In this document: positions 694 through 29,341 of the stretch, in pieces | Layout: each line of letters starts with the position of its first letter | Numbering within the stretch: the stretch's first letter is position 1 | From: Perkinsus olseni | Taxonomy: Eukaryota | Direction: 5' to 3' | DNA length: 46,899 bases | NCBI GenBank assembly: GCA_013115125.1 | Contig: JABANN010000255.1 | Coordinates: 1 to 46,899 of the forward strand | Position numbers and translations under genes: made by a program | The notes under the pieces: model-generated | What the model was told of the DNA's origin: nothing | Database searches by the model: none | What the model saw: only the letters and a program-made list of their open reading frames with translations

Positions 694-1739
694 CTCGGCG
701 TCTACGGCAAGCTACTAGGTGATTTCGCCGTGATAGAGGAACACGGGGAGGTTGTTACGATATTCACTCAGATACGGCCTATGTTCTTGACGCGGTCCAT
801 GGGGCAAGTGATATGAGTCACATCACCACGCTCATGGTGTGCGATTGGCAAATTGTGAGTGGCAATTCGCGGAAATTTCTGCAGCGGAAAAATTGGCAAA
901 ATAGCAAAAATGACCAAAAATGGCCCAAAAAGGACCCACAAACCTTTAATGGCATTCCTTCATTTCACTGCGTTGTCTAACTTGAATGGGGTTCGTGACT
1001 TACTTCACACATGAGTAAAACATGAAATTATCTATTTGCTTGCGAACTGCTGCAGTTCAACTTCGAGCATCGCGCAGTTATCGAAGGAGTCTTTCCCTTA
1101 ATAAGTCCACGTCAGTGAGTATGCCACGAAGCCTGGCCCCGCAACGCCGACAAGGCCCTTGTATCTTGTGAACCTTTACGAAACGGGAACTGACAACGCC
1201 TCGTCCAAGCCTTGGACTCCAAGGTCACCAATCGGTTGCGCCTCCACAGTTGAGGCATTTCCTCTCATGTATGAGAGTGGACTCAAATTGAGTCACTCAA
1301 TCTGCAGCAGTTGAACAGCATAACTGATACTCATAATGAGTATAAGTTTTACGGCATTACTGCTGAGTAGCTCACTTACTACACTTCGTTGCGTTGAGCC
1401 ACTGGATTTGATCACAGAGGTACCCTGCCGAATCAGCAATGGTGATTGAATTGTCATCAATCCATGGCTGAGACAGCTCAGATCACCATCTCGCGGATCG
1501 TTGAGCCAGATACCGGAACGGTCCGGTACCAGTAAGGTCGCTAATAATTATCCGGAAAACTTGATCTCACTCAGGTGCCCTCCATTCCGTCATCTATTCG
1601 TAACGCTCAAAAGGACGCGAGCGGAGAGGCACTTTCGAAGCAACGGTTTGACGAGTTTCGTTATTGTGATAAGGAACGCGCCTTGGCCCTTCGGTTGGCT
1701 ATGCCTTGAAGCGTTGTAGCATTGCTAAAGTAGCAAAGT

Positions 1740-2089
1740 CATGGTGGCAAATTGCCACTGGCTATTCATGCCAGGGATTGAGACTCTTTTGAACGACGAC
1801 GATATTGTCCACTCTCATATTCTTTCCTACATTACCAGCCGGAATTGAAAAGCTGCTGAAGTACTGAGCTTTAGCTGAGATGAAGGGGTAAAACTTGTCA
1901 TTCCGCCAGGCCCATGGGTGAAGGACTTACGACTCGCAAGTTGAGGGCGTCACGCTCCGAGGAACGGAACGGTTAGTCGGACTAACTCAGTCCTCATTTC
2001 GACTCCTACCGTATTACGGCAACGTCCCTAACTTTCTCCTTTGTCCGTAACGTCCCTAACGTCCCTGGTTTAGCCACCTTGCCACCGTG
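1740..2089. mobile_element. Possible non-autonomous TIR element (MITE-like)
   Basis: CATGGTGGCAA at 1740-1750 and TTGCCACCGTG at 2079-2089 form an 11-bp inverted repeat with 1 mismatch. Three subterminal AACGTCCCT repeats lie at ~2021-2066. No clear target-site duplication. Confidence 0.35.
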
Positions 2090-2224
2090 GCTTACATATC
2101 GGACAAGGACTTGGACCTACTCTTGTTGGAAGTAATCTTACTGTTGAATACCCGTCCAACGCTCCCTTACTACTACGACGAGGATGAGGCTAAGCGAATG
2201 TTACACCCGATACGCTAATAGTGC

Positions 2225-2257
2225 AATCCCAGCATAGTGTAACACTATGCTGGGATT
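2225..2257. repeat. Perfect 16-bp inverted repeat (hairpin/cruciform)
   Basis: AATCCCAGCATAGTGT-A-ACACTATGCTGGGATT: the arms are exact reverse complements with a 1-nt spacer. Confidence 0.9.
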
Positions 2258-3070
2258 ATACCAGGAGTTGGGGCCGGGAATTCGGCTTCGGGCTTAGCGC
2301 CGAGCCGATTAAGGCCGGTTGTGATACCACTACTGTTCGAACGGAATTCATCGATTATCATTGGAGAACGCTAAAGAAGAAATCCCTGGTTACGTTTACT
2401 CCAAATGCCCTTAAGGAGCAGAGAAGATAGATTTTGACACACGACCCCGATACCGACTGCGACGCACTCAATGACCACGCCGCGGGTATCGATGACGAGG
2501 ACGACGTTCCCGCGACGGGATTCCTGGCCTTGATCGCACGCGCGAACTGGAGGTCCGTCCTGATCGCATTGCATGAACATTCGGGTCAACCTGAAGGTAC
2601 GTGGCAAACGAGGCAAGCACTGGCACAAAGCCGCTGTGATACGCGAGTTGAAGAGCGGTCATGTTAGAGTGGGCACGACGGCTCGCCGGATGAGCGACTG
2701 TGGCTCGACGCCGAGCAGGGGGAACCAGGACACGTGCACGGTCGGTCGGATCGACCGTACGCGTGTTCTGGCAACTGACACGACTATTCTGCTAAGCATG
2801 TTCTGGAAGTGCTTTGTGCGAATTGGTGTTTCGTTGGAAAAGCCCCGATCATATGTACGTACTGCTGAGCGGTACTGCTCAGAGCAGTGTGCTTCAGTGC
2901 GCGCACCTGCCTTCCGGCCATGCAGGTAGAGGTAGACCGCCCGAACGGTACGTATAAATGCATGAGAAGTTTGTGCTCTTACGCTTGTTGCACTCAGTAA
3001 ATTACTGACAGTAATGGTCAGTGACCATTGGTTACCCTCACACGGTAACACAACGCTGGCTGAATGGTGC

Positions 3071-3773
3071 TCAGGAATAAGCGACTTTATTTATACCATT
3101 ACGATCAAGCCTGAACTTGATCCATTCGGGCATCTTCGCAGCGCCAATCCTCTCATAAAATTCATGAGCCTTCACGTTCCAGTCAAGAGCTTCCCATTCA
3201 ACCCTCGCACACCCTCTGTCGGCGGCAAATTTAGTAACGTACTTCAGCATCGCAAGGCCTATCCCCTTCGACCGACTATGCTCGAGTACATAAAGATCTT
3301 CAAGATGAATGGACCTGACGAGCCAACTCCAACCAGCAACCCCTCCTACCAGGAAACCCACCTGCCCTCCCAAGTTGAGTAGACCGGAAAGAACAAGACA
3401 AAGCCTACAGCTTCCCCATTGACCTCAGCAATGGCGGCCCAGTAGTGGCCATCATTGAAGTCCACCCGTAGCGTCTCGGGGGTGACCTAAGGCAGCAGCC
3501 TAGCGGACAATGGGTCCGACAGCAGCGGACCTCAACAGCCTCGGGCATCCTCTCGAAGTGGGCCAACCTCTTGACCATCCCGTGTATGGTATGCGAGTCA
3601 GCGACAATACCGGCACGAACAACCAGCTTTTCGCCAGTATCCAGCCATTCCTCGATGCGCACTGGAGGATGCCTCGGCTGCCTCGAACGATACAGCAGAG
3701 CCGCCATGGCTCCTGTAGCGATCACAGCTAGGGCCCCGGTGACAGCACGAGTCGATAAGTCGAATTTGTCCAT
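3071..3773 (-). CDS. GNAT-family (diamine/SSAT-like) N-acetyltransferase A with N-terminal hydrophobic anchor; 3 exons
   Basis: ATG at 3773; GT-AG introns 3487-3530 and 3315-3361. Spliced product includes LAHFERMPEAVEVTPETLRVDF...VGFVLFFPVYSTWEGRSIHLEDLYVLEHSRSKGIG...EWEALDWNVKAHEFYERIGA, typical SSAT-type GNAT motifs. Confidence 0.9.
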
Positions 3774-3977
3774 CAAAATCCGCCGAACTTGGGCGACTAC
3801 TCACAAGCGGACTTCCCGACAGGGGCGACAAGCCGTTGTTACGAATGCCGATCGTGAGAACCGACTCTCCTTGCAGTTGAGAAGTTATCCCTACTAGAAT
3901 GATGACCACCAGGATTGCATCACCGAGCTCAACTCAATGCCAGTACCAGAGAGATGGCAGAAACTGAGAGTTTTACT

Positions 3978-5031
3978 TCAATTCGAGGAGGCCAAAGCTG
4001 CGATACCGTCATGATCCAGAACGAAGGGTATCCACTCCGACTCCTTCTTGGCTCCAATACTCTCATAGAAACGATGAGCACCAACGTTCCAGTCGACGGC
4101 CGACCAGTCCATTCTAGCGTAGCCTTCACGAGCCGCGAGCTTAGCCACGTACTCAATCAAACTGCGGCCAATACCTTCGCCCCGGAGGTCTTCGTCGACA
4201 TAGATGTCCTCAAGATGAATTGATCTGCGAAATTCGCAGTGCGAATACGACCGGTCCAATCTCATCCCAGGCAGAAACAGCCATTCGAAAAACAAAAATC
4301 ACGACCGACTTGCGAGATCGACAGCCGAGAATACTCTCACATATCGGCCATCACGGTCTATGTGACCATCGTGAGAAGTCTCTGGCACACCCCTTTCGCT
4401 TACTTGCCATCCCAAGTCGAGTATCCTGGGTAGAAGAGAGCATACCCCACTGGACTGCCTTCAACCTCCGCGATGGCTGTGTGGTAGCGGCCGGCCAGGA
4501 AGTCCTTTAGAAGGTCATACGACGATATCTGGACAGTGCCGGTCAAACGGTTGATGACAGGATAGGCCTACGTTGAGATTGTTAGAGGAATGTCTTATTG
4601 TGTCTATCTCCCAATCTCAGTGTACATGCGTGCACCCTTTTAGCTATGGTAACACTGGTTGGTTGTTGTGCGATCAGTATTGATGAGATTGGTATAAGTC
4701 AGTCCGTAGCCATCTTGGCTCAAGTTCTGAACTGTTGGGTTCAGTCAATGTCTGACAACCCTCAAGGGAGCGGAACACCTGCCGTTAATAGATCCTCGGG
4801 CAGTTTTTGGAAGAGGACCAACTTCTCGAGCATCGTATAGATCTGGTGTGAATCGGCCGCCGTTCCCTCTCTAACGACGAGTTGCCGGCCGTCGCTGAGC
4901 CGCTTCTCGACTTGAAGAGCAGTTCGACCGCGTCGGCGCTTCATAACAGCCAGGAGGCCCACGGCCATGCAGAGACCAGCTCCCGCCGCGGTGGCCGCAG
5001 GGATGATGGAGGAGGAACGAAAATGTAGCAT
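3978..5031 (-). CDS. GNAT-family (SSAT-like) N-acetyltransferase B, tandem paralogue; first intron enlarged, intactness uncertain
   Basis: Exon 1 (5031-4783) reads ...LVVREGTAADSHQIYTMLEKLVLFQKLPEDLLT. Exon 2 from 4528 reads ISSYDLLKDFLAGRYHTAIAEVEGSPVGYALFYPGYSTWDGK. The last exon reads SIHLEDIYVDEDLRGEGIG...WNVGAHRFYESIGA. Joining exons 1 and 2 in frame needs a GC-AG intron at 4782-4529. Confidence 0.75.
4703..4782 (+). ncRNA. Perkinsus-type spliced leader (4703-4724) with SL-RNA-like downstream sequence; SL RNA gene, pseudogene or SL relic
   Basis: TCCGTAGCCATCTTGGCTCAAG matches the perkinsid 22-nt SL (ACCGTAGCCATCTTGGCTCAAG; dinoflagellate form DCCGTAGCCATTTTGGCTCAAG) at all but the first base. 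It is followed by hairpin CTGAAC-tgttgg-GTTCAG, an AATGTCTGA segment and a CCC-tcaa-GGG stem. No GT directly after the leader. Confidence 0.7.
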
Positions 5032-5231
5032 TTAGAGAAGAAACTATTGTTGATTATAGACCAGCTATAGAAACAAGGCAGAGCAGGTCTTATCAGCCGC
5101 GTCCTGCTGGATCTATACCCCTACCCTCAGCCAACCTTGACCAGGGGTCGTCATCGATGATGGAAAAGGATGATGATATACAAGGCATCCATGCAAACGT
5201 GTTCGGCAGGGCGGTTTCCAGTTCCCCACGA

Positions 5232-8200
5232 CTATCCGCCGCTCTTTGTCGTCCCTCTCAGCTCATCATTCTCCTTCCTTGCGACAGTCAAAGCTCTCCT
5301 AGTGGCACCCAGCATCGCTGTAGTCGCCATCAGCTCACTCCTCGTAGTTTCTAGTGCCGTTACTGTCTCTCGACCAGTCTGATACCACTCCTTCCAGAGA
5401 TCACATTCCCAACCCCCTCTCCTACCGTGGAGGTTGTCGTGAGCTCATGTTTGAGGTCGGTGATGAGGTTGTCCTTCTCAACGCTACGCTTCTCCACTTC
5501 CTCCACTTGCGCCTTGTACTCGGCCATTCGATCTTCCAGCCTCTGCTGTTCCATACGAATGAAGCTCAGCTCGCTCTCCAGACGAATCTTGTCGTCCGTC
5601 AACTCCGACGCCATTTCCTCGGCATTGAGACGGCTACAACAACAAAAAAACTTTGTCAAGAATCAATTTTGTATCTCGCACCCTCATAGCTACGACACTT
5701 TCCACCCGAATAACCGCCATTGAGACACTAGATGGCGCTATCGTGGAAGGCATGGTAAGTTCCCAAGCACTGGAGGGCGACTCATGGCTACTACTGGGAC
5801 CACACCTCTATCGTGGACGTCCAGACCAGTGCGAGCCGCGACACCACATGATGATAAGAAACGATAAGGCCCCCGCCCACTACGCTTGCTTCTCCATCTC
5901 TCGTTCCCCTTCAACCGACTTGGCTAACTCCTTCAAACGTTTAACGGCCTCCTCAGTTTCCTACACCAGCGACAACCCCGACTGCATCGCTCGCTTCTCA
6001 CCTCGTGCGTCTTCCTCAACTCCGCCTCATCGCGGGAGTGCCTGTCAATCTCCTCCATCTTCACTGTTATCTCACTCTTGGCCTCCCTCAGCTCCTCCTT
6101 GCACTCCGTCAGCTCGAGCGTGGTCCTTTCCAGCTCTACTTTGATCTTCTCCAGCAGGCCTTCAACCATCACTCGTTTCTCCGTAGCTTCCACCAGCTCA
6201 GCTCTGGCAGCTTCCCTGTCTCTCTCGACCTGACCAAAAAGCTCCCTACTGGACGACAAAACCCAACCAGTCTGACCTGACTCAGTCTTGCCTTCACTTC
6301 TTCCGTCCTCTCCTTCTCCACCCTCATCTCCTCCTCCATTCCTCCAACAGCCTCCTTCAACCCCTCAATCTCCTTCTCATACATCTGTCTCTGCCAAGCT
6401 TCCCTCACCAACTCGTTCTCCTTGCTCATGAGCTGCCTCCTAGTGGCCGCCAATGCCTCACTGGCCTCCTCGAGTTCCGTTGAGGAGCAGTCTAGTTTAC
6501 CCTGCAGCTCATCACAGCGGCTCTCTGCCATTCTCAGCTCCTCCCTGGCCTTCGCCTCTCGCTTGTCTCTTGCGGTGGATTCCTCCTTCAACCTCTCAGT
6601 CAGGGCCTCCGCTCTGCCAAGCTTCATCTGAAGCTCTTCTACAGAAGACCCTAGCTCTTTCTCTCGCAAGGCGCTCCTCTCCACCTCCGCCTTCAACAAC
6701 GCTATCTCTGAGTCCGCCGAGGTCAGCCTCTTCTCCAGTTCTTCGGCAGACCTCCGCAAATCAGCAATAACCTCATCCTTCTCCTCCTTGGCCTCCTCTG
6801 CGGCCTTCAGGCTGGCGATGATCTTGCTTCGCTCCGCCACAAGCCCCTGACATTTTTCGTCCAACTCCTCAGCCCTCTTCATCTCCTCTTGCACCTTCCT
6901 CTCCGCCTCTTCCAGGTCCCGGACTACCTCCTCCCTGGCCTCGACCGCTGCCTTCCGAGTGCACTCCAGCTTCTCCCTCAACTCCTCACACTCCTCCTTC
7001 AGGCCCTCACCCTTCACCTGCTTCTCCTCTTCCAACTCCTCAACCTTCGCAGCCAGCCTAGCCTCCCCAGCGACAGCCTTCTGACAGGCCGCCTTGGCGT
7101 CTCCTAGATCCCCCCTCAACTGGCATCGCTGGTCCTCGAGCTCAGTAATGGTCTGCCTGTCGTCAGCAAGTTCCCTCTCCTTCGCCTCTACAACTGCCTT
7201 TAACTCCCTCAGCTCCACCTTAATCATCACCAACTCACCCGAGAATCGCGCCTCCTTCTCGGCCACCACGTCTTCCAGCTTCTCCTTTTCCTCCCTGAGC
7301 CTCTCCAGCTCCTCTCTCCTCGCCCGAAGGCCGTCTAATTCCTTCATAAGCTCCCCCTCCTTCGCCTCCGCCTCCTCAGCCCTCTTCTCAGCTTCCCGGC
7401 GTCTGGCAACTTCCTCGCCTAGCTTATCTCGAAGGCAAGCCATCCCCTCAGCCAAGCCCGCCCTCTCCTTCTCCAACTCTATCTTGAGACCCTCACAGAC
7501 CCCCTCAGCAATCATCTTCTCCTCAGTGGCCGCCTTCAACGACTCAATGCTCTCCCTCATCATCACCTCTCCCCTGTTGAGAGCATCCCTGGCAATCTCC
7601 AAGTCCCCCTGAAGCCTCTCAGCGAGCTCCTTCAACTCCTCCATCTCCTCCCTCTCCCGCTCCTCCTTCTCACCCAGCCTCGCCACGTCCTCCACAGCCG
7701 AATCAGCTCGATCGACCTCAGCCTCGAGCCTGTCTCTAAGCCGGGCTAGCTCACTCTCCAACAGCTCCCTCTGAACTCTGTACTTTCTCATACCCTCAAC
7801 CTCCCTCATCAGCTCAGCCTCCCTCCCTTCTGCCTTGGAAAGCTCCTCTTCAGCAGCCTTAAGCGCAGCTTTCAACGCGCCCTCTTCCTCCCTCGCTCTT
7901 CCACACTCCTTCTCCAAGGACTCCATCTCACCTTTGATCCTCGTAACCTCACGCCAAGCACCGACCTCCGCTTCATCCCTCTCGGCTTTGAGCTCCTCGA
8001 AGCGCTCCTGCACCGCGGCAAGGGCCTCGACTTGATCACGCAGCTCCTCCAGCTCGATCTCCTTCTCCTTCCCAACCTCAGCCAAGATACTCTTCAGTCT
8101 GATCACCTCTCTCTTCTCCCTATTAGCTTCCAGCGCCATCTCCTCCAGCTCTCGTTCCTTTCCTTCCAACTCCTGCTCTCTCTGCAGGACGGTCGCCTCT

Positions 8201-10638
8201 ACGCATCGCCACTCCCCCACCTTCGCCTCCAGCACATCATAAAAAGCCTCAGGTGTGACCTTACCGGCGATACCCAGGTCACCGAGGATGCCTTCGGGGA
8301 CCTCAAAGGCCTCGACCTCAGCCTGCAGCCGAGCCAGTTCCTCCTCCAGCTCACCGTTGCGCTTCTTCAACTCCTCCCCCCGCGACTCGAGCCTCTTCAC
8401 CTCTCGCTCAGCCTCCTCTGCCACACTCCTTATCAACTCTACCTCCACTAGCAGGGAGTTCTCAGTCTCCACCGCGGTCTTCTGTACCCCATCCAACTCC
8501 GCCTTCATAGCCACCTCCCTCTCCTCGACCTCCTTCAGCCTCTCCACCACCCCAGCCGGGCCTCCGTTTTCCTCAACAGCGCCTCTCAGCGCGGCCATCT
8601 CCTCCTCGACACCTACCTTCTCCTCCCTCACCCGCTCAATTGCCTCCTCCAGCTCAGTGTTGAGGCAGCGATAGTGATCGAGCTTAGCCTTGAGCCTTTC
8701 GCCCTCCAAAGCCATGGCCTCCATATCACTCTCGTGATCCTCCCTCGCACGATCGGCAATCTCCTCGCCCATTCTCCTAGCCCTCTCAGCCTCGGCAGCA
8801 CGGCTGTCGGCCTCCACCCGCCTGGCCTTTTCTACCTCTACCGCCTCCCGTAGCCTCGCCAGCTCCTCCTCCTCAATGCCGCTCCCAGCCACCAAGTTCA
8901 CGGAGTTAACATTCTCATCATTCTCCTGTTCCTCCTCAGCCTTAGCCAGCCTGACCGCCTCTCTCTCCTTCAGCACCAACATCTCCCCGCGTAGAGCCTC
9001 CCCCTCAGCCCTGACCCTCTCCAACTCCTCCATCACTCCAGCGTGCACGACCTGCAACCGATGACATGAACCGCAGCGGACGTCGGTGCCCAAATACCAC
9101 CTCCAGTTTCTCGTACTCCGGGCGGACATCATCCACCTTTGACAGGGCCACCTCAGCGTTCGCCGCCTCACACCTAGCAACCTCAGCCGCGTGCCGAGCC
9201 TCCGCTAGCTCCCCACGGAGACCTGCCACCGAGCACCTTTGCCCTACCAACGGCCCATCGCCTACCCTTAGTCTCAGCCTCGAGCTCCTCCACCCTATTT
9301 TCCATCTCCGAGGACCGGGCCTGCTGTGACCAGCTAGCCGTCCCGCCGGCAGGCCGCCCGACTTACTTCAGATGAAGACACTTTTCCCTCTACGACTGGG
9401 GTGATGAACTTAACCGATAAAAAGTAGACCGCCGCCGTCCACATAGCAGAGGCCACCACGAGGAAGGGCAGCTGCATCGATTAATCGAAGCATGACCATA
9501 CCAGCCACCCTCACTACCCCAAAGCCGAGGAAGTTGAAAGCAGCCATGGGCCCCACTGAGGCCGACAACAGGACGGCTCCCATGATCGGTGACATGAGCC
9601 GACTTTTCTGTCCAGCGGTCACCGCAGTTCCACCGGTATTGTCGCTACCGGAACTGAGAAGCAGGACGTGGAAGCCCCAATGCGTTTCTGCTGGCTTACC
9701 GGGTGATGTCATCGCTATTCTGACGTCTAGTGGCGCGCGGGCCACGGTGAGCGGCAGTGGTAGCAGCCTGCTTACGGGAGGGCATTAGAGGGCGAACCAA
9801 GCACTAGGGTGGAGGTCACCACCCACCGCCAGCCCAACACAAGACAAAGACATAGAAAACAGCTTCAATCATAATCACTCTGTTGGGGATCCGGAGGCAT
9901 CCCGTCCAGCCGGAGGAGCTTCCTCTGCCGCTCTGGCCCGCCACTCTCCCTCGCCCTCTTGGACACTCGACCCGGCCCTTCTCCTGAGCATCAGGATGGA
10001 CCACCACACAGGAGTTCACCTACGATCGACATGCAGCCGGCGATACTCTCTGAAGTCCTCAACTTCGAAAACATAACCGAACTCAGGCCGGGCCGTCTTG
10101 CGACCGAAGAGCACAACGTCGCCTACGAGGGGACGAAATGGCTGGTGGCACTAGAAGCTCTTGCTTTCTTCGGAGAGATACCCGGCGCCAGCTCTTGCTC
10201 CTCCCTGACAGCCTTGCCGTTCACATACACTCCGTTGACACTCCGAAGATCCTTCAACACGAAGTCACAAGGGCCTGCGGGCCGAAGGAAATTACCGCGC
10301 GCCACGAAAATAGTAACCGCATGTGATTAGCAACGTGTTGACCCGAGTAGCCAGCTCCATCAAGCGACTACGCCAGGTCCGATTCTATCTCAGAACACAA
10401 CGACGACTCTCCTCGAAGCTGCCGCTATTGGGCTCGGCCATACCGACCCACCTCTCCTCTCTATGACCGCATGTTCTCTACTGAGCGTCCTAGGGTAAAG
10501 GACAGAGTCCAAGTACACGTCCGACTCCACCGCTCGGCCAATGAAGCATCTCTGAACATGACAAGAAGTATGATTTCCCCTCTCAGTCAGTACCCACCCT
10601 ACCTCCCTCCCAAGATGGACCACATGGGGCACGTCCAT
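5232..10638 (-). CDS. FHA-domain + very long coiled-coil protein (multi-exon)
   Basis: 5' exons encode FHA motifs CFIGRAVESDVYLDSVLYPRTLSREHAVI and FVLKDLRSVNGVYVNGKAV. A Ser/Pro-rich linker follows, then a ~2.8 kb E/K/R/A-rich heptad exon (~6283-9053). The last exon ends ...RKENDELRGTTKSGG-stop at 5232. A single gene is inferred from splice-like boundaries. Confidence 0.7.
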
Positions 10639-17646: not shown

Positions 17647-17718
17647 GGGCTGGGCCGAGAATCGAACTCGGGACCTCTCGCACCCAAAGCGAGAATCATA
17701 CCACTAGACCACACAGCC
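17647..17718 (-). tRNA. tRNA-Pro (anticodon UGG)
   Basis: Reverse complement GGCTGTGTGGTCTAGTGGTATGATTCTCGCTTTGGGTGCGAGAGGTCCCGAGTTCGATTCTCGGCCCAGCCC, 72 nt. Intact D, anticodon (CTCGC/GCGAG) and T arms; one U:C mismatch in the acceptor stem. Confidence 0.93.
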
Positions 17719-25658: not shown

Positions 25659-27236
25659 TTAGGCTTCCGTTGCTTCGGACTTCTCGGCATGCTCACGCTC
25701 AACCTTATTGAAGTAAGGTAGGAAAAGGAGACAGCCGATCGCTCCAGCAACACAAATACCAGCTAGAAGCATAAAGTAGTAGTCGTAGTGAGAACCAGTG
25801 TACATGACCGACTCGGGGTAGTCATCAGGATCGAAATCAGGCATCCACGGAGCACAGATTTGGAAGACCACTCCAGCCAAGAGATTAGCGAAAGAGAAGA
25901 AGAGCAAGTTGAGAGCCGATGACACCGCCTTGAGTTGACTTGGAGAGTAGGTGAAGGCTATCTCGTACGAGGTTGAGATGAGGAAGATCTCACCGGTGGC
26001 GATGAGGAAGAATTGCGGCACCTGCCACCATACCGAAACGGTATAGAGAGGACGATCCATTATCGAGTACTCGACACCCAAAGCACAGAGCAAGGCGAAG
26101 CAGCCCAGCATGGAGCCGATACACATCCTTAGAAGAGCGGAAGGCATCTTGTTGTGCTTTCGAAGGAACTTGTAGAGGAGACCATCAATCCATAATGAGT
26201 TGATAATGATGGATATGCTATCGACATTTTGCATCATTGAGGCGGGAATCTGCCAACCAAAGGTATCACGATTCATCTTCTCGGCTTGTGTAAGGAAGGC
26301 TGTGGTCATTTGAGCATAAGCGATCATGAAAGGGATGACCAAGGCAAAGAGCGGAATAAGCCGGAAGATTGACTTGGCATCCTCGATGAACTGATCTTCA
26401 AATCGACCACCTTTGCTCTTCTTGCACTTCTCTAGAGAGCAGTGAACAGCGGCGTCTCCAATAACCTCGATAACCCTGATAACAGCAGACCCTTGTGGCC
26501 TTGGCTTCACAAATCTGCCCATGATTCCACCAATAAGGAAGAACGTTGTGGCAATGACAAATGCGAAGAAGGGCACCAGGTAGGCCACGAAGAAAGATAC
26601 CTTCTCGACAAGGATTGGGGTAACGAGGCCGCCTACCAGACCACCGAGGTTAATAGAAGCATAGAAGTAGGTGAAGAACCTTGTAATTTGAGCTTTGTGG
26701 AGAACAGGATGGAACTGTTGGGCACCCATAACATTAACACAGCTCTTGATTCCACCGCTTCCGAACGTGATAAGCACCATTAGGGACATGTGGACCATCC
26801 AAGGTTCAGATATGCTTTCAACTGAAGCCAGGCATAGTAGAGCGAGTCCTATTGTGTAGACCACAGAGAAGGCCAGAATGGTATTGTAGACACCCAATAG
26901 AGTATCGGCTAAGACAGCTGCAACCAGCGGCGTGACGTAAATAACAGCCTGGAAAGCTGATATATAAGTATTAGCAGCCGTATCGTTGTAACCGAGGAAC
27001 TCCTTCAAGAACGTCTGCAAATTCGGCGTTATACCGTAGAATGCTAGACGTTCACAAAGCTCCTGTACGAGAACGAAGATAGTAGCCTGCATCATGGGGT
27101 GCTCGTAGTAGTGATAGACATTGCCAGAAGCATCAGTCCAGGTTAGAGGCTTCTTGCTATCAACAACCGGTGAACTGTCTTGCTTCACGAGCTCCTCCAC
27201 ACCAGAATTAGATTTGAGCTCGGATGACTTCGTCAT
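25659..27236 (-). CDS. Proton-dependent oligopeptide transporter (POT/PTR family, MFS)
   Basis: 525-aa intronless ORF with ELCERLAFYG (ExxER motif), GSGGIKSCVNVMGAQQF and FFTYFYASINLGG (PTR2 motif), plus multiple TM segments. Confidence 0.95.
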   Translation of the reverse strand: MTKSSELKSNSGVEELVKQDSSPVVDSKKPLTWTDASGNVYHYYEHPMMQATIFVLVQELCERLAFYGITPNLQTFLKEFLGYNDTAANTYISAFQAVIYVTPLVAAVLADTLLGVYNTILAFSVVYTIGLALLCLASVESISEPWMVHMSLMVLITFGSGGIKSCVNVMGAQQFHPVLHKAQITRFFTYFYASINLGGLVGGLVTPILVEKVSFFVAYLVPFFAFVIATTFFLIGGIMGRFVKPRPQGSAVIRVIEVIGDAAVHCSLEKCKKSKGGRFEDQFIEDAKSIFRLIPLFALVIPFMIAYAQMTTAFLTQAEKMNRDTFGWQIPASMMQNVDSISIIINSLWIDGLLYKFLRKHNKMPSALLRMCIGSMLGCFALLCALGVEYSIMDRPLYTVSVWWQVPQFFLIATGEIFLISTSYEIAFTYSPSQLKAVSSALNLLFFSFANLLAGVVFQICAPWMPDFDPDDYPESVMYTGSHYDYYFMLLAGICVAGAIGCLLFLPYFNKVEREHAEKSEATEA

Positions 27237-27739
27237 CTTTGAAATAAAGTCTTAAAATAAGATACGTTACAACACTAACAGTTCAGTGAGGTACATTTAC
27301 AGTGAACAGCGCTAGAGTAAGGTCATAGCGTCACTGACACAGAGCCTGTCCCATAAGGATCGGTGACAAGCCCCACTCGAGGGGGAGGAACCTGATCCGT
27401 TCTCGAGTGAGTATCGCCTCAAGTGCTTATCATTGATGAATGATGTGGACATCTCGTATCGGGTTGCTAGACGGGACGACGGGGGAATTCTCAACGGGGA
27501 AGCAGCACACAAATCTGTCCCTTAGAGTGGACGATGCCCTGCTCGTAGCTCTAGCTCAAGTCGTCCATGCGGGAGTCGGTCGTCCGTGGCTCGTGCCTAG
27601 GCGTATTCGACTATAGAATCTCCTGGCCTGCTGGGCCCCCAGGAGGCACATATTCGCCGGATGGAACGTGTTGTCGTAGCGAACATAGCCAATCATTGTG
27701 CAGGTTTGGATTCGGTTGAGTGGGATCTATCACTGTATA

Positions 27740-29341
27740 ATGCTTTTCCGAAGATCTCGAAGTTCATCAGGGTCCGCAGATCCACGGAAGCCTCTTGCCT
27801 GGACGGACCCTTCCGGCAACACGTATCATTACTTTGAGCACCCCTTCTTCAATGCCACTATCTTTGTCCTCTCGATGGAAATGTGTGAGCGATTGGCGTT
27901 CACGGGTCTGTTGCCAAACTTGAAGAACTTTCTCAACGAGTTTCTCGACTACGACGACAGTACCGCCTACTCGTATATAAGCGACTTTCAGGCCATCATG
28001 TATTTTACCCCTCTTATCGGAGCCGCCATAGCGGATACTCTACTGGGGTTGTACAAAACTATCATAATTTTCGCCGCTATATATATGCTTGGCTTGTTGT
28101 TCGTGGTCCTTGCCGCGGTACCGTCTATATCTCAGCCTTGGATGGTGCATTTGGGTTTGATGACGCTCATTGGCCTAGGCAGTGGCGGAATCAAAAGTTG
28201 CGTCAATGTTATGGGAGCGCAACAATTTCATCCTGAACTACACAAGTCGGATATCACCAGATATTATACGTACTTCTATGCTTCTATACAGATAGGCTCT
28301 ATCATTGGTGGTATTGTTACGCCCTTGATGGTTGAGGGCGTCTCTTACTTCGCTGCTTTCTGTGTTCCCTTGGCAGCGTTCGTCGTTGGGTTTGCGATCT
28401 TCCTATTTGCAAGCTTTACGAACCGTTATGTGAAGCCGAAGCCGCAGGGCTCTGCTGTGGTCCAGGTTGCTAAAGTGATTGGTTCTGCCTGCATGAAATG
28501 CTCCTTAGAAAAGTGTAAGAAGTCTCGTGGTGGCAAGTACGAGGACAGTTTCATTGAGGATGCGAAGATGCTTTTTCGTCTCGTCCCGCTATTCTGCTTG
28601 ATCATCCCATTCATGATTGCTTACCAACAGATGACAACAGCGTGGGTCACTCAGGGTTCGAAAATGAACCGTGATACATTCGGTTGGGATATACCCGTAC
28701 CGTTGATGCAGAACGTCGACCCTATCGCTGTTGCGCTGACCTCTGTCGTTGTCGATGGGGCCCTCTATCCCAATCTTCGTCGATGGGGTATCATGCCATC
28801 CCCTCTGGTCCGATGTGCTATCGGCTCATTCTCTGGCGCGGTGGCACTAGTGTGCTCTTTGATCGTGGAGTATGTCGTGATGGCTCACCCGGTCTTCACT
28901 ATATCCATTTGGTGGCAGGTCTTGCAATATTGGTTCATCGCCGTGGGTGAGATTTTCCTAGTGTCTACTTCTTACGAGATCGCTTTCACGAATTCACCGT
29001 CGTCTTTGAAGGCTGTCGCCTCAGCTGTCAATCTGCTTTTCTTCTCCATCGCTGGACTCATCTCCGGCGCATTGTTCAATGCATGCTCGTCTTGGATGCC
29101 GACTTTCGACCCATCTGATCCCACCGAAGACAGTGTGAAGGGTGCTCACTACGATTACTTCTTCATACTACTAGCAGTTATCTCAGGAATTGGTGGCATC
29201 TGTGCTCTGGCTATGATACCGTACTATAATAAGGTGTCAAGAGAAAACCAGGCCCATCTCGAGGAGGAAGCGGTGTTGTCCAAGAGTAGCGACCTGAGCC
29301 TCAAGGAGCATGCGGAGAAGGCAGAGTCTTCCGAAGTGTGA
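27740..29341 (+). CDS. Proton-dependent oligopeptide transporter (POT/PTR family), divergent paralogue
   Basis: Intronless ORF from ATG 27740 with EMCERLAFTG, GSGGIKSCVNVMGAQQF and YYTYFYASIQIGS. Colinear with the neighbouring copy. Confidence 0.95.
   Translation: MLFRRSRSSSGSADPRKPLAWTDPSGNTYHYFEHPFFNATIFVLSMEMCERLAFTGLLPNLKNFLNEFLDYDDSTAYSYISDFQAIMYFTPLIGAAIADTLLGLYKTIIIFAAIYMLGLLFVVLAAVPSISQPWMVHLGLMTLIGLGSGGIKSCVNVMGAQQFHPELHKSDITRYYTYFYASIQIGSIIGGIVTPLMVEGVSYFAAFCVPLAAFVVGFAIFLFASFTNRYVKPKPQGSAVVQVAKVIGSACMKCSLEKCKKSRGGKYEDSFIEDAKMLFRLVPLFCLIIPFMIAYQQMTTAWVTQGSKMNRDTFGWDIPVPLMQNVDPIAVALTSVVVDGALYPNLRRWGIMPSPLVRCAIGSFSGAVALVCSLIVEYVVMAHPVFTISIWWQVLQYWFIAVGEIFLVSTSYEIAFTNSPSSLKAVASAVNLLFFSIAGLISGALFNACSSWMPTFDPSDPTEDSVKGAHYDYFFILLAVISGIGGICALAMIPYYNKVSRENQAHLEEEAVLSKSSDLSLKEHAEKAESSEV

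Follow-up and report, generated by a model that had tools for sequence, protein, structure and literature searches.

A spliced-leader-like sequence within a dispersed element, probably a solo long terminal repeat, in a GNAT gene of Perkinsus olseni

How does a spliced-leader sequence come to lie inside a protein-coding gene, on the strand opposite to that of the gene? The question is raised by a contig of Perkinsus olseni (JABANN010000255.1, assembly GCA_013115125.1), the whole of which, 46,899 nucleotides read on the forward strand, we call the window. At positions 4703-4724 (+) it carries TCCGTAGCCATCTTGGCTCAAG, a 22-nt sequence closely resembling the spliced leader (SL) of Perkinsus, and this is surrounded by a gene of the GNAT family that is read from the minus strand. 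A first-pass annotation had seen here an SL RNA-like structure nested antisense inside a GNAT intron, and had offered three explanations: a solitary SL RNA gene or pseudogene, a variant donor giving a leader 1 nt shorter, or the relic of a retro-integrated trans-spliced antisense transcript. Our analysis leads to a different view. With a probability of roughly two in three, we take the 22-mer to be a fossil or captured Perkinsus leader within a 211-nt mobile element, likely a solo long terminal repeat (LTR), that has inserted into the first exon of the GNAT gene.

The presence of a leader of the perkinsid form at 4703-4724 (+) is confirmed. TCCGTAGCCATCTTGGCTCAAG is the sole match in the window when up to three mismatches are allowed, 0 of 100 shuffles gave a match, and no piece of the 22-mer of 9 nt or longer was found to recur within the window. 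It is identical in 21 of 22 bases to PmaSL1, the leader of P. marinus (PMC3101222, cited here and below for the available part of that paper), the single difference being base 1, which is T here and A there. The two letters in front of the leader are AG; behind it comes TT and no GT, as the first-pass annotation had remarked.

Twenty public sequencing runs contain the stretch or part of it, and four of these were aligned to positions 3900-5300. Two are DNA runs from two studies (X1 and X3); X7 is an RNA run by a guessed label, with spliced contigs present, and X18 is recorded as a metatranscriptome. All four were used as contigs, from which the starts, ends and strand of RNA cannot be read. 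The letters AAGTT at the end of the leader are covered in both DNA runs by unitigs that match exactly, with 0 other letters (4655-4764 in X1 and 4652-4764 in X3), and no inserted or deleted letter is listed at this site in any of the four runs. There is thus no AAGGTT variant at a share of 10% or more, and AAGTT does not result from a slip of the assembly.

The DNA runs reveal that the leader is not an isolated sequence. Contigs flanking the locus have depths of 45.1 and 43.2 in X1, and 83.4 and 75.3 in X3. Within 4580-4790 the summed depth of bins rises to 1634-3168 (X1) and 2456-5381 (X3), values that are sums over contigs and do not equal copy number. The exact unitigs that cross the leader have depths of 663.6 (X1) and 1269.3 (X3), about 15 times the flank depth. 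The long flank contigs end 28-30 nt inside the repeated segment. At its left border (4579/4580) contigs branch into at least three continuations in X1 and at least four in X3, and at its right border (4790-4792) into at least nine and at least eight respectively; A4790 is common to all nine of the right-hand continuations among those listed in X1. Finally, the X18 RNA run contains a contig of exactly 211 nt that corresponds to 4580-4790 with 0 differences. On the basis of depth, branching and this unit-length contig we conclude that the leader is an internal part of a dispersed repeat, which is present in many copies, with a substantial share of these being identical.

The element so defined, at 4580-4790 (+), starts with TG and ends with TA, and the leader occupies its positions 124-145. 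The 123 nt upstream of the leader (4580-4702) contain TATAAG at 4693-4698, and make up a putative unique 3′ (U3) region; the 66 nt behind it (4725-4790), including a hairpin at 4727-4744, would form the repeat and unique 5′ (R/U5) regions. The element is flanked by a short target-site duplication, GAT at 4577-4579 on the left and at 4791-4793 on the right, or AGAT at 4576-4579 and 4790-4793 if the element ends at 4789. No second copy of the element exists in the window, and an element 32-mer gave 0 matches in a collection of genome contigs and 0 in one of viral contigs. Two variant copies, both at single depth, are seen elsewhere in the genome. One has 4623-4705 (83 nt, including the first three bases of the leader) swapped for four letters, and the other is without 4689-4732 (44 nt, including the entire leader).

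Where does the element lie within its host gene? In the gene (3978-5031, −), which we call GNAT copy B, exon 1 upstream of the insertion extends over 4794-5031 (−), with the ATG at 5031-5029, and is 100% identical to the deposited protein P0001. The RNA contigs of both X7 and X18 contain a joint 4528>4572, which defines a first intron of 43 nt with GT..AG borders at 4529-4571 (−), and a second joint 4224>4404, which defines an intron 2 of 179 nt, also GT..AG, at 4225-4403 (−). Exon 2 (4404-4528, −) is supported by RNA joints and protein models alike, and the coding part of exon 3 with the stop codon (3978-4224, −) matches Acetyltransf_1 (PF00583, E 1.6e-12). Past the first joint, the mRNA contigs extend through 4572-4579 (−), the last 8 nt of exon 1, and on into the element as far as 4606 or 4608. 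On the other side, an exon-1 contig of X7 (4766-5045) enters the element by 25 nt, beyond both of the donors used in annotation. Contigs thus enter the element from both sides, and no splice joint across it is found in either RNA run, where rare or minor transcript forms can escape the contigs. Measured by these contigs, the element does not behave like a spliceosomal intron or an introner-like element, which would be cut out of the mRNA at its own borders. Since the RNA joints put the true intron at 4529-4571, the element has landed in coding exon 1, 8 nt upstream of the donor, and has severed these last 8 nt, which the empty-site proteins described below also assign to the exon, from the rest.

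The location in a GNAT intron that was claimed initially is therefore true of the annotation only; the transcripts have a 43-nt intron elsewhere and run into the element. Nor is there support for a distance of exactly 80 nt from the leader start to an exon-1 boundary at 4782: 4782/4783 lacks a minus-strand GT donor, the deposited models use donors at 4818 and 4778, and the RNA contigs use neither of them.

The reading frame that continues from exon 1 into the element meets a stop at 4764-4762 after 89 codons, and the insertion probably makes GNAT B a null allele. The depth of exon 1 in the RNA runs was not used as evidence: X18 has no cover on it (4793-5300), and in X7 the exon-1 contig has a depth of 426.6 and that of exons 2-3 one of 1619.1. 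Such gaps could reflect transcripts that start in the element or trans-splicing inside it, neither of which can be shown by depth or holes in contigs. We note that the read-through transcripts of GNAT B carry the exact reverse complement of the spliced leader (4703-4724). If many copies of the element are transcribed in antisense, the resulting RNA would be able to form duplexes with SL RNA and trans-spliced mRNAs at their 5′ ends.

Copies of the gene that appear to lack the insertion are found among deposited proteins. A search with the exon-1 peptide returned five proteins, all named 'Diamine acetyltransferase 2 [Perkinsus olseni]' at NCBI. Three of these, P0002, P0003 (205 amino acids) and P0005 (184 amino acids), are 95-97% identical to exon 1 and read straight across the site as …KLPEDLNISSYD… / …KLPEDLNISSYDLL… (…PEDLNISSYD…). 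This peptide is exactly what the flanks encode when 4580-4790 and one copy of the duplication are removed, and it is colinear with GNAT copy A, a tandem neighbor at 3071-3800 (−; PF00583, E 1e-13) that has no interruption at the homologous site. Inspection by eye found no GT..AG pair able to excise the insertion exactly, so that the loci of P0002, P0003 and P0005 are most likely without it; all three are gene models, known here as proteins alone. The two GNAT (diamine-acetyltransferase-like) paralogs share the same three-exon layout, and the first intron of each is very short (44 nt in copy A, 43 nt in copy B) and falls at the same codon position.

The other two proteins accommodate the element in ways that differ from each other. 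P0004 (194 amino acids), the model deposited for this window, skips 4529-4818 from a donor at 4818 and thereby loses 11 codons. P0001 (218 amino acids), from another assembly, has an intron at 4604-4778, inside the element, with its donor at 4778; this 175-nt intron is in frame and leaves 13 extra codons free of stops. Neither intron is seen in the RNA contigs of X7 or X18. It is possible that the intron of P0001 is used in a minor form, and that a transposon is here turning into an intron. The deposited models, which represent one and the same allele, of 194 and 218 amino acids compared to 205 in the uninterrupted protein, hide the insertion in two different invented introns.

What kind of element is this? 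It is probably the solo LTR of an LTR retrotransposon of about 6 kb. Evidence for this comes from the layout of a 5641-nt RNA contig of X18, which in the + orientation begins with 4761-4790 and ends with 4580-4609; the end of the element is followed by 5.58 kb and then by the start of the element, as expected for the internal part of an LTR retrotransposon between its two repeats. The TG start, the termini that form an imperfect inverted repeat (6 of 9 bases), the small duplication, and the near-identical copies in different flanks all argue in the same direction. Behind 4790 the majority continuation in RNA (five contigs, agreement 0.68) starts with TGG, which creates an ATG together with A4790 and is followed by an open frame. 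Judged by its letters, this TGG may resemble the start of a primer-binding site, and in some Ty1/copia-type elements gag starts at the edge of the LTR with the primer-binding site inside gag. The only tRNA gene of the window, a tRNA-Pro(TGG) at 17647-17718 (−), does not fit the TGG… continuation.

A number of observations weigh against this interpretation. No full-length element and no gag/pol frame have been seen, and the LTR layout is drawn from two 30-nt ends of one RNA contig together with loose consensus ends of low agreement. The termini are TG…TA and not the canonical TG…CA, a duplication of 3 bp (GAT) or 4 bp (AGAT) is short for LTR elements, and there is no clear polypurine tract in the left-hand consensus. 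The peptide of the + frame of the element matches no protein (0 of 19 longer candidates, and none of near length). TATAAG lies only 5-10 nt before the start of the leader, and so fits a transcription start near 4725 better than one at 4703. Furthermore, no contig spans the whole element, so that a full-length element might have been collapsed into a solo LTR by the assembler, and the support for an empty site comes from gene models.

These points lend some weight to a second possibility, that the 211 nt belong to a different kind of dispersed repeat: a retroposon like a short interspersed nuclear element, a miniature inverted-repeat transposable element, some other non-autonomous element, or a 5′ module common to a multi-copy retrogene family. 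The last would comprise an upstream region, a relic leader and a 5′ untranslated region up to the ATG, and in every one of these forms the leader relic would be a passenger. The evidence for many copies serves this explanation equally well; the ATG and open frame behind 4790 could follow a 5′ untranslated region, no polyprotein has been tied to the element, and termini other than TG…CA and a duplication of only 3-4 bp speak for it as well. On the other hand, the unit has neither a poly(A) or A-rich 3′ end nor a long duplication, contrary to copies mediated by long interspersed nuclear elements, and its inverted repeat extends to only 6 of 9 terminal bases. A lone 5′ gene module with exact borders and a duplication would be hard to produce. 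An LTR element is also the best fit to the 5641-nt contig, at whose borders the end and the start of the unit stand in one orientation. We therefore regard a repeat of another kind as the less likely explanation, if a serious one.

If the element is a solo LTR, how might it have acquired a leader? We suggest that the RNA of a retrotransposon received the leader by trans-splicing, as other Perkinsus mRNAs do, and that reverse transcription then copied it into the LTR at the junction of U3 and R. Later rounds of replication would have passed the leader on to both LTRs of all descendants, one of which would have inserted, with a target duplication of 3-4 bp, into exon 1 of GNAT B, 8 nt before the donor of the 43-nt intron. 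Read-through of the GNAT gene on the minus strand would then meet the stop after codon 89 and take up the reverse complement of the leader. The position of the leader is plausible for the U3/R border, in that 123 nt before it and 66 nt after it correspond to the proportions of U3 and of R-U5; this placement is inferred, and the proposed origin through trans-splicing and reverse transcription draws on the carrier's being a putative retroelement and on the T at base 1, also found in 31 of 42 environmental clusters. If transcription now starts near 4725, given TATAAG at 4693-4698, the leader may have become the last part of U3. The AG directly before the leader and the AG inside it could both serve as acceptors. 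It might even be speculated that the T at base 1 arose because reverse transcriptase misread a first nucleotide that was modified. As a DNA copy of the leader outside the SL RNA genes and with no SL intron, the sequence can be called a relic leader.

A bolder version of this proposal holds that an active P. olseni LTR retrotransposon has incorporated the host leader where U3 meets R in its LTR and now employs it as the start, or the whole, of R. The element RNA would then have a 5′ end like that of host mRNAs, either transcribed from the LTR or renewed by trans-splicing, and first-strand transfer would draw on homology supplied by the leader within the 3′ LTR. Dozens of leader and anti-leader copies would be scattered in genes, some of them transcribed in antisense as in GNAT. 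We consider such active use of the leader doubtful.

Could the locus nevertheless hold a single working SL RNA gene, antisense to its GNAT host, perhaps with its donor one base earlier (CAA|GT)? The leader agrees in 21 of 22 bases, and a GT is indeed present at that earlier position. However, the SL RNA genes of P. marinus have a GT donor directly behind the leader, with an intron start common to the L and S types (PMC3101222), whereas here TT follows, in the sequence as in the DNA contigs of two runs. Moreover, the single junction between leader and other sequence among those listed is at 4724, not at 4723, the leader end required by the earlier donor. The intron-start motif, as read from the 3′ RACE (rapid amplification of cDNA ends) primers in Table 1 of the same paper, gave 0 matches at up to three mismatches. 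None of the 13 oligonucleotides of that table, which represent true introns and 'SL-like' loci, aligned with the 66 nt that follow the leader beyond the level of chance; for the best of them 181 of 1000 shuffles scored at least as high, and for those of the true L and S introns 891 and 202. All comparisons of leader and intron were made with P. marinus sequences, from which the P. olseni intron may differ, and the SL intron of P. chesapeaki is reported to be different (PMC3101222).

Other expected features of an SL RNA gene are likewise absent. SL transcripts of P. marinus are 80-83 nt long and end in a poly-T tract in 83% of 48 clones (PMC3101222). Here there is no T-tract 80-83 nt from the leader start and no run of four or more T inside the element, the first such run occurring at offset 102 from the leader start, in the exon DNA of the GNAT gene. 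Many S-type genes of P. marinus lie in arrays or have U2 or U4 genes as neighbors (PMC3101222); a search with Rfam found no U2 or U4 gene near the leader, and at gathering level found tRNA only over the window. Between 4300 and 5100, with E up to 10, it gave a single chance match to mir-73 (13.7 bits against a gathering score of 86).

Nor does RNA structure argue for an SL RNA. The predicted fold of the 80-mer beginning with the leader has −24.1 kcal/mol, and its shuffles −20.38 ± 3.06 kcal/mol (z = −1.22); with 25 of 200 shuffles folding equally well or better, the structure is not significant. The CTGAAC/GTTCAG hairpin at 4727-4744 that had been taken as the first stem does exist, but perfect hairpins of 6 bp, with loops of 3-10 nt, are present in 1380 of 20000 shuffles of the 58-mer (about 7%), and 53 of 808 tiles of 58 nt across the window contain one, which puts it at chance level. 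The template of leader, stem, Sm site and stem against which the sequence had been read is not applicable to Perkinsus, where the candidate Sm site is located inside the leader exon and not in the intron (PMC3101222). Both X7 and X18 hold contigs of the element, whose strand cannot be read. In X7, sequencing adapters adjoin the element immediately behind 4702, the last base ahead of the leader, and ahead of 4719, within it, a hint at preferred RNA ends at the leader border; these would point to RNA of the + strand only if the library were stranded, and were not used as evidence.

Evidently the leader locus is not an SL RNA gene: it has no GT, no likeness to P. marinus SL introns, no T-tract and no match in Rfam, and a larger repeat contains the 22-mer in its interior. 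We consider it very improbable that a functional SL RNA gene, with or without a shifted donor, is concealed here, and the first two of the original explanations are left unsupported. The third comes closer, in that the leader is a relic in kind, but its mechanism fails: although the leader lies on the strand opposite to the gene with AG directly before it, an origin from a local antisense transcript is wrong because the leader, the 123 nt before it and the 66 nt behind it form one unit common to many loci and the empty-site proteins show the whole 211 nt plus duplication as extra sequence, while an assembly chimera, which had been feared should reads fail to span the junctions, is unlikely too, since each junction is present in DNA contigs from two studies and in the model P0001 of a second assembly.

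These results have a number of implications. A false positive has been removed, in that no SL RNA gene is nested in a GNAT intron. If the proposed history is true, the element provides direct evidence of a retroelement RNA that was trans-spliced and then copied back into DNA. It would identify a vehicle for at least part of the many intron-less leader copies that have been known in Perkinsus since 2011, and a mobile element bearing a leader can multiply leader copies without the need for separate retroposition events. The locus also illustrates a problem of annotation, the insertion of a transposon in a coding exon being masked by invented introns. Since other copies of the gene in P. olseni are without the insertion, it is a candidate presence/absence marker in this parasite of farmed clams.

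Elsewhere in the window, two divergent genes of the POT/PTR2 transporter family, each a single long open frame, are located at 25659-27251 (−; E 2e-62) and 27689-29341 (+; E 4.8e-60). An open frame of 1011 codons at 6169-9204 (−) is of the coiled-coil type, with many E, R, L and K residues, and has no match in Pfam; further exons of the same character seem to run down to about 5232, adjoining the start of the GNAT gene.

How does this leader copy compare with those found elsewhere? The closest parallel is in P. marinus, where more than 100 leader copies without an SL intron have been described, most of them starting with T, with no SL RNA detected from them by 3′ RACE or blot (PMC3101222, Zhang et al. 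2011). The authors judged these copies to be non-functional as SL RNA genes. The P. olseni leader shares with them the T start, the lack of a recognizable SL intron, variable downstream sequence unrelated to SL RNA and a location in or near a protein-coding gene. It differs in its setting: the P. marinus copies mostly form tandem arrays, and no carrier element is named for them in the available part of the paper, whereas here a single leader lies in a bounded 211-nt unit, and the 66 nt behind it are unlike the published oligonucleotides for the P. marinus SL-like loci. With the L and S genes for SL RNA the P. olseni locus has the leader exon in common (21 of 22 bases), but not the GT, the conserved intron start, the poly-T at 80-83 nt, the array or the U2/U4 neighborhood (PMC3101222).

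Similar copies exist in the environment. The exact Perkinsus-type 21-mer was found in 57 environmental metagenome contigs (L001-L057), mostly from lakes and the sea, which fall into 43 clusters when near-duplicates are merged. It is preceded by T in 41 of 56 contigs (31 of 42 clusters) and followed by GT in just 3 of 57 (3 of 43 clusters; L002, L007 and L044). Thus a T start is typical of intron-less leader copies, both in P. marinus and among these contigs. In L007 and L044 a run of T also occurs within 40 nt, and L044 consists of a tandem repeat of about 1.57 kb, as in true SL RNA genes. In 11 of 43 clusters the 21-mer is followed by CC, as expected of decayed second leader copies. Outside the leader, none of the 57 contigs resembles the element. 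Of the first-ATG frames that follow the leader, the ten longest were scanned, and 0 of 10 contained a retroelement domain of Pfam; Globin/EF-hand was found in one, ankyrin in another and a weak DUF3482 in a third, and the other seven gave no match.

The relict leaders of dinoflagellates (Slamovits and Keeling; PMC3229502, PMC12014239) are alike in principle, being leaders encoded in DNA that derive from reverse-transcribed trans-spliced RNA. As described in the available parts of these papers, they sit at the 5′ terminus of cellular genes that were retro-copied, and truncated second copies often come after them. The carrier proposed here is in contrast a retroelement, with the relic inside its terminal repeat and no truncated second copy behind it. 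As a solo LTR, the element would resemble those of Ty1/copia-type elements such as SmTCL of Symbiodinium (PMC5776459, in its available part), with a short repeat, a TG start, a small duplication and near-identical copies; the presence in RNA contigs and what seems to be an internal part of about 5.6 kb between two repeats are also shared. Unlike SmTCL, no gag/pol is seen here and the 3′ terminus is TA, not CA. The terms 'spliced leader' and 'trans-splic' are absent from the SmTCL paper, and in the main texts of the literature examined we found no description of a leader inside the LTR or terminal repeat of a mobile element. What would be new is thus a leader within a mobile terminal repeat, intron-less leader copies and relict leaders being known already.

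Perhaps the nearest analogy is provided by the Cassandra retrotransposons, of the miniature class known as TRIM, whose LTR contains 5S rDNA. There too an LTR carries and spreads a piece of a cellular small-RNA gene. In the accounts available, Cassandra carries the internal promoter of the 5S gene, which is thought to serve its transcription, whereas the P. olseni element has taken up the 22-nt leader exon only, for which no use is seen. Retroelements and spliced leaders are also linked in trypanosomatids, where SLACS, CZAR and CRE are non-LTR retrotransposons that insert into SL RNA genes. In P. olseni the relationship is reversed: the element carries the leader, and inserts elsewhere.

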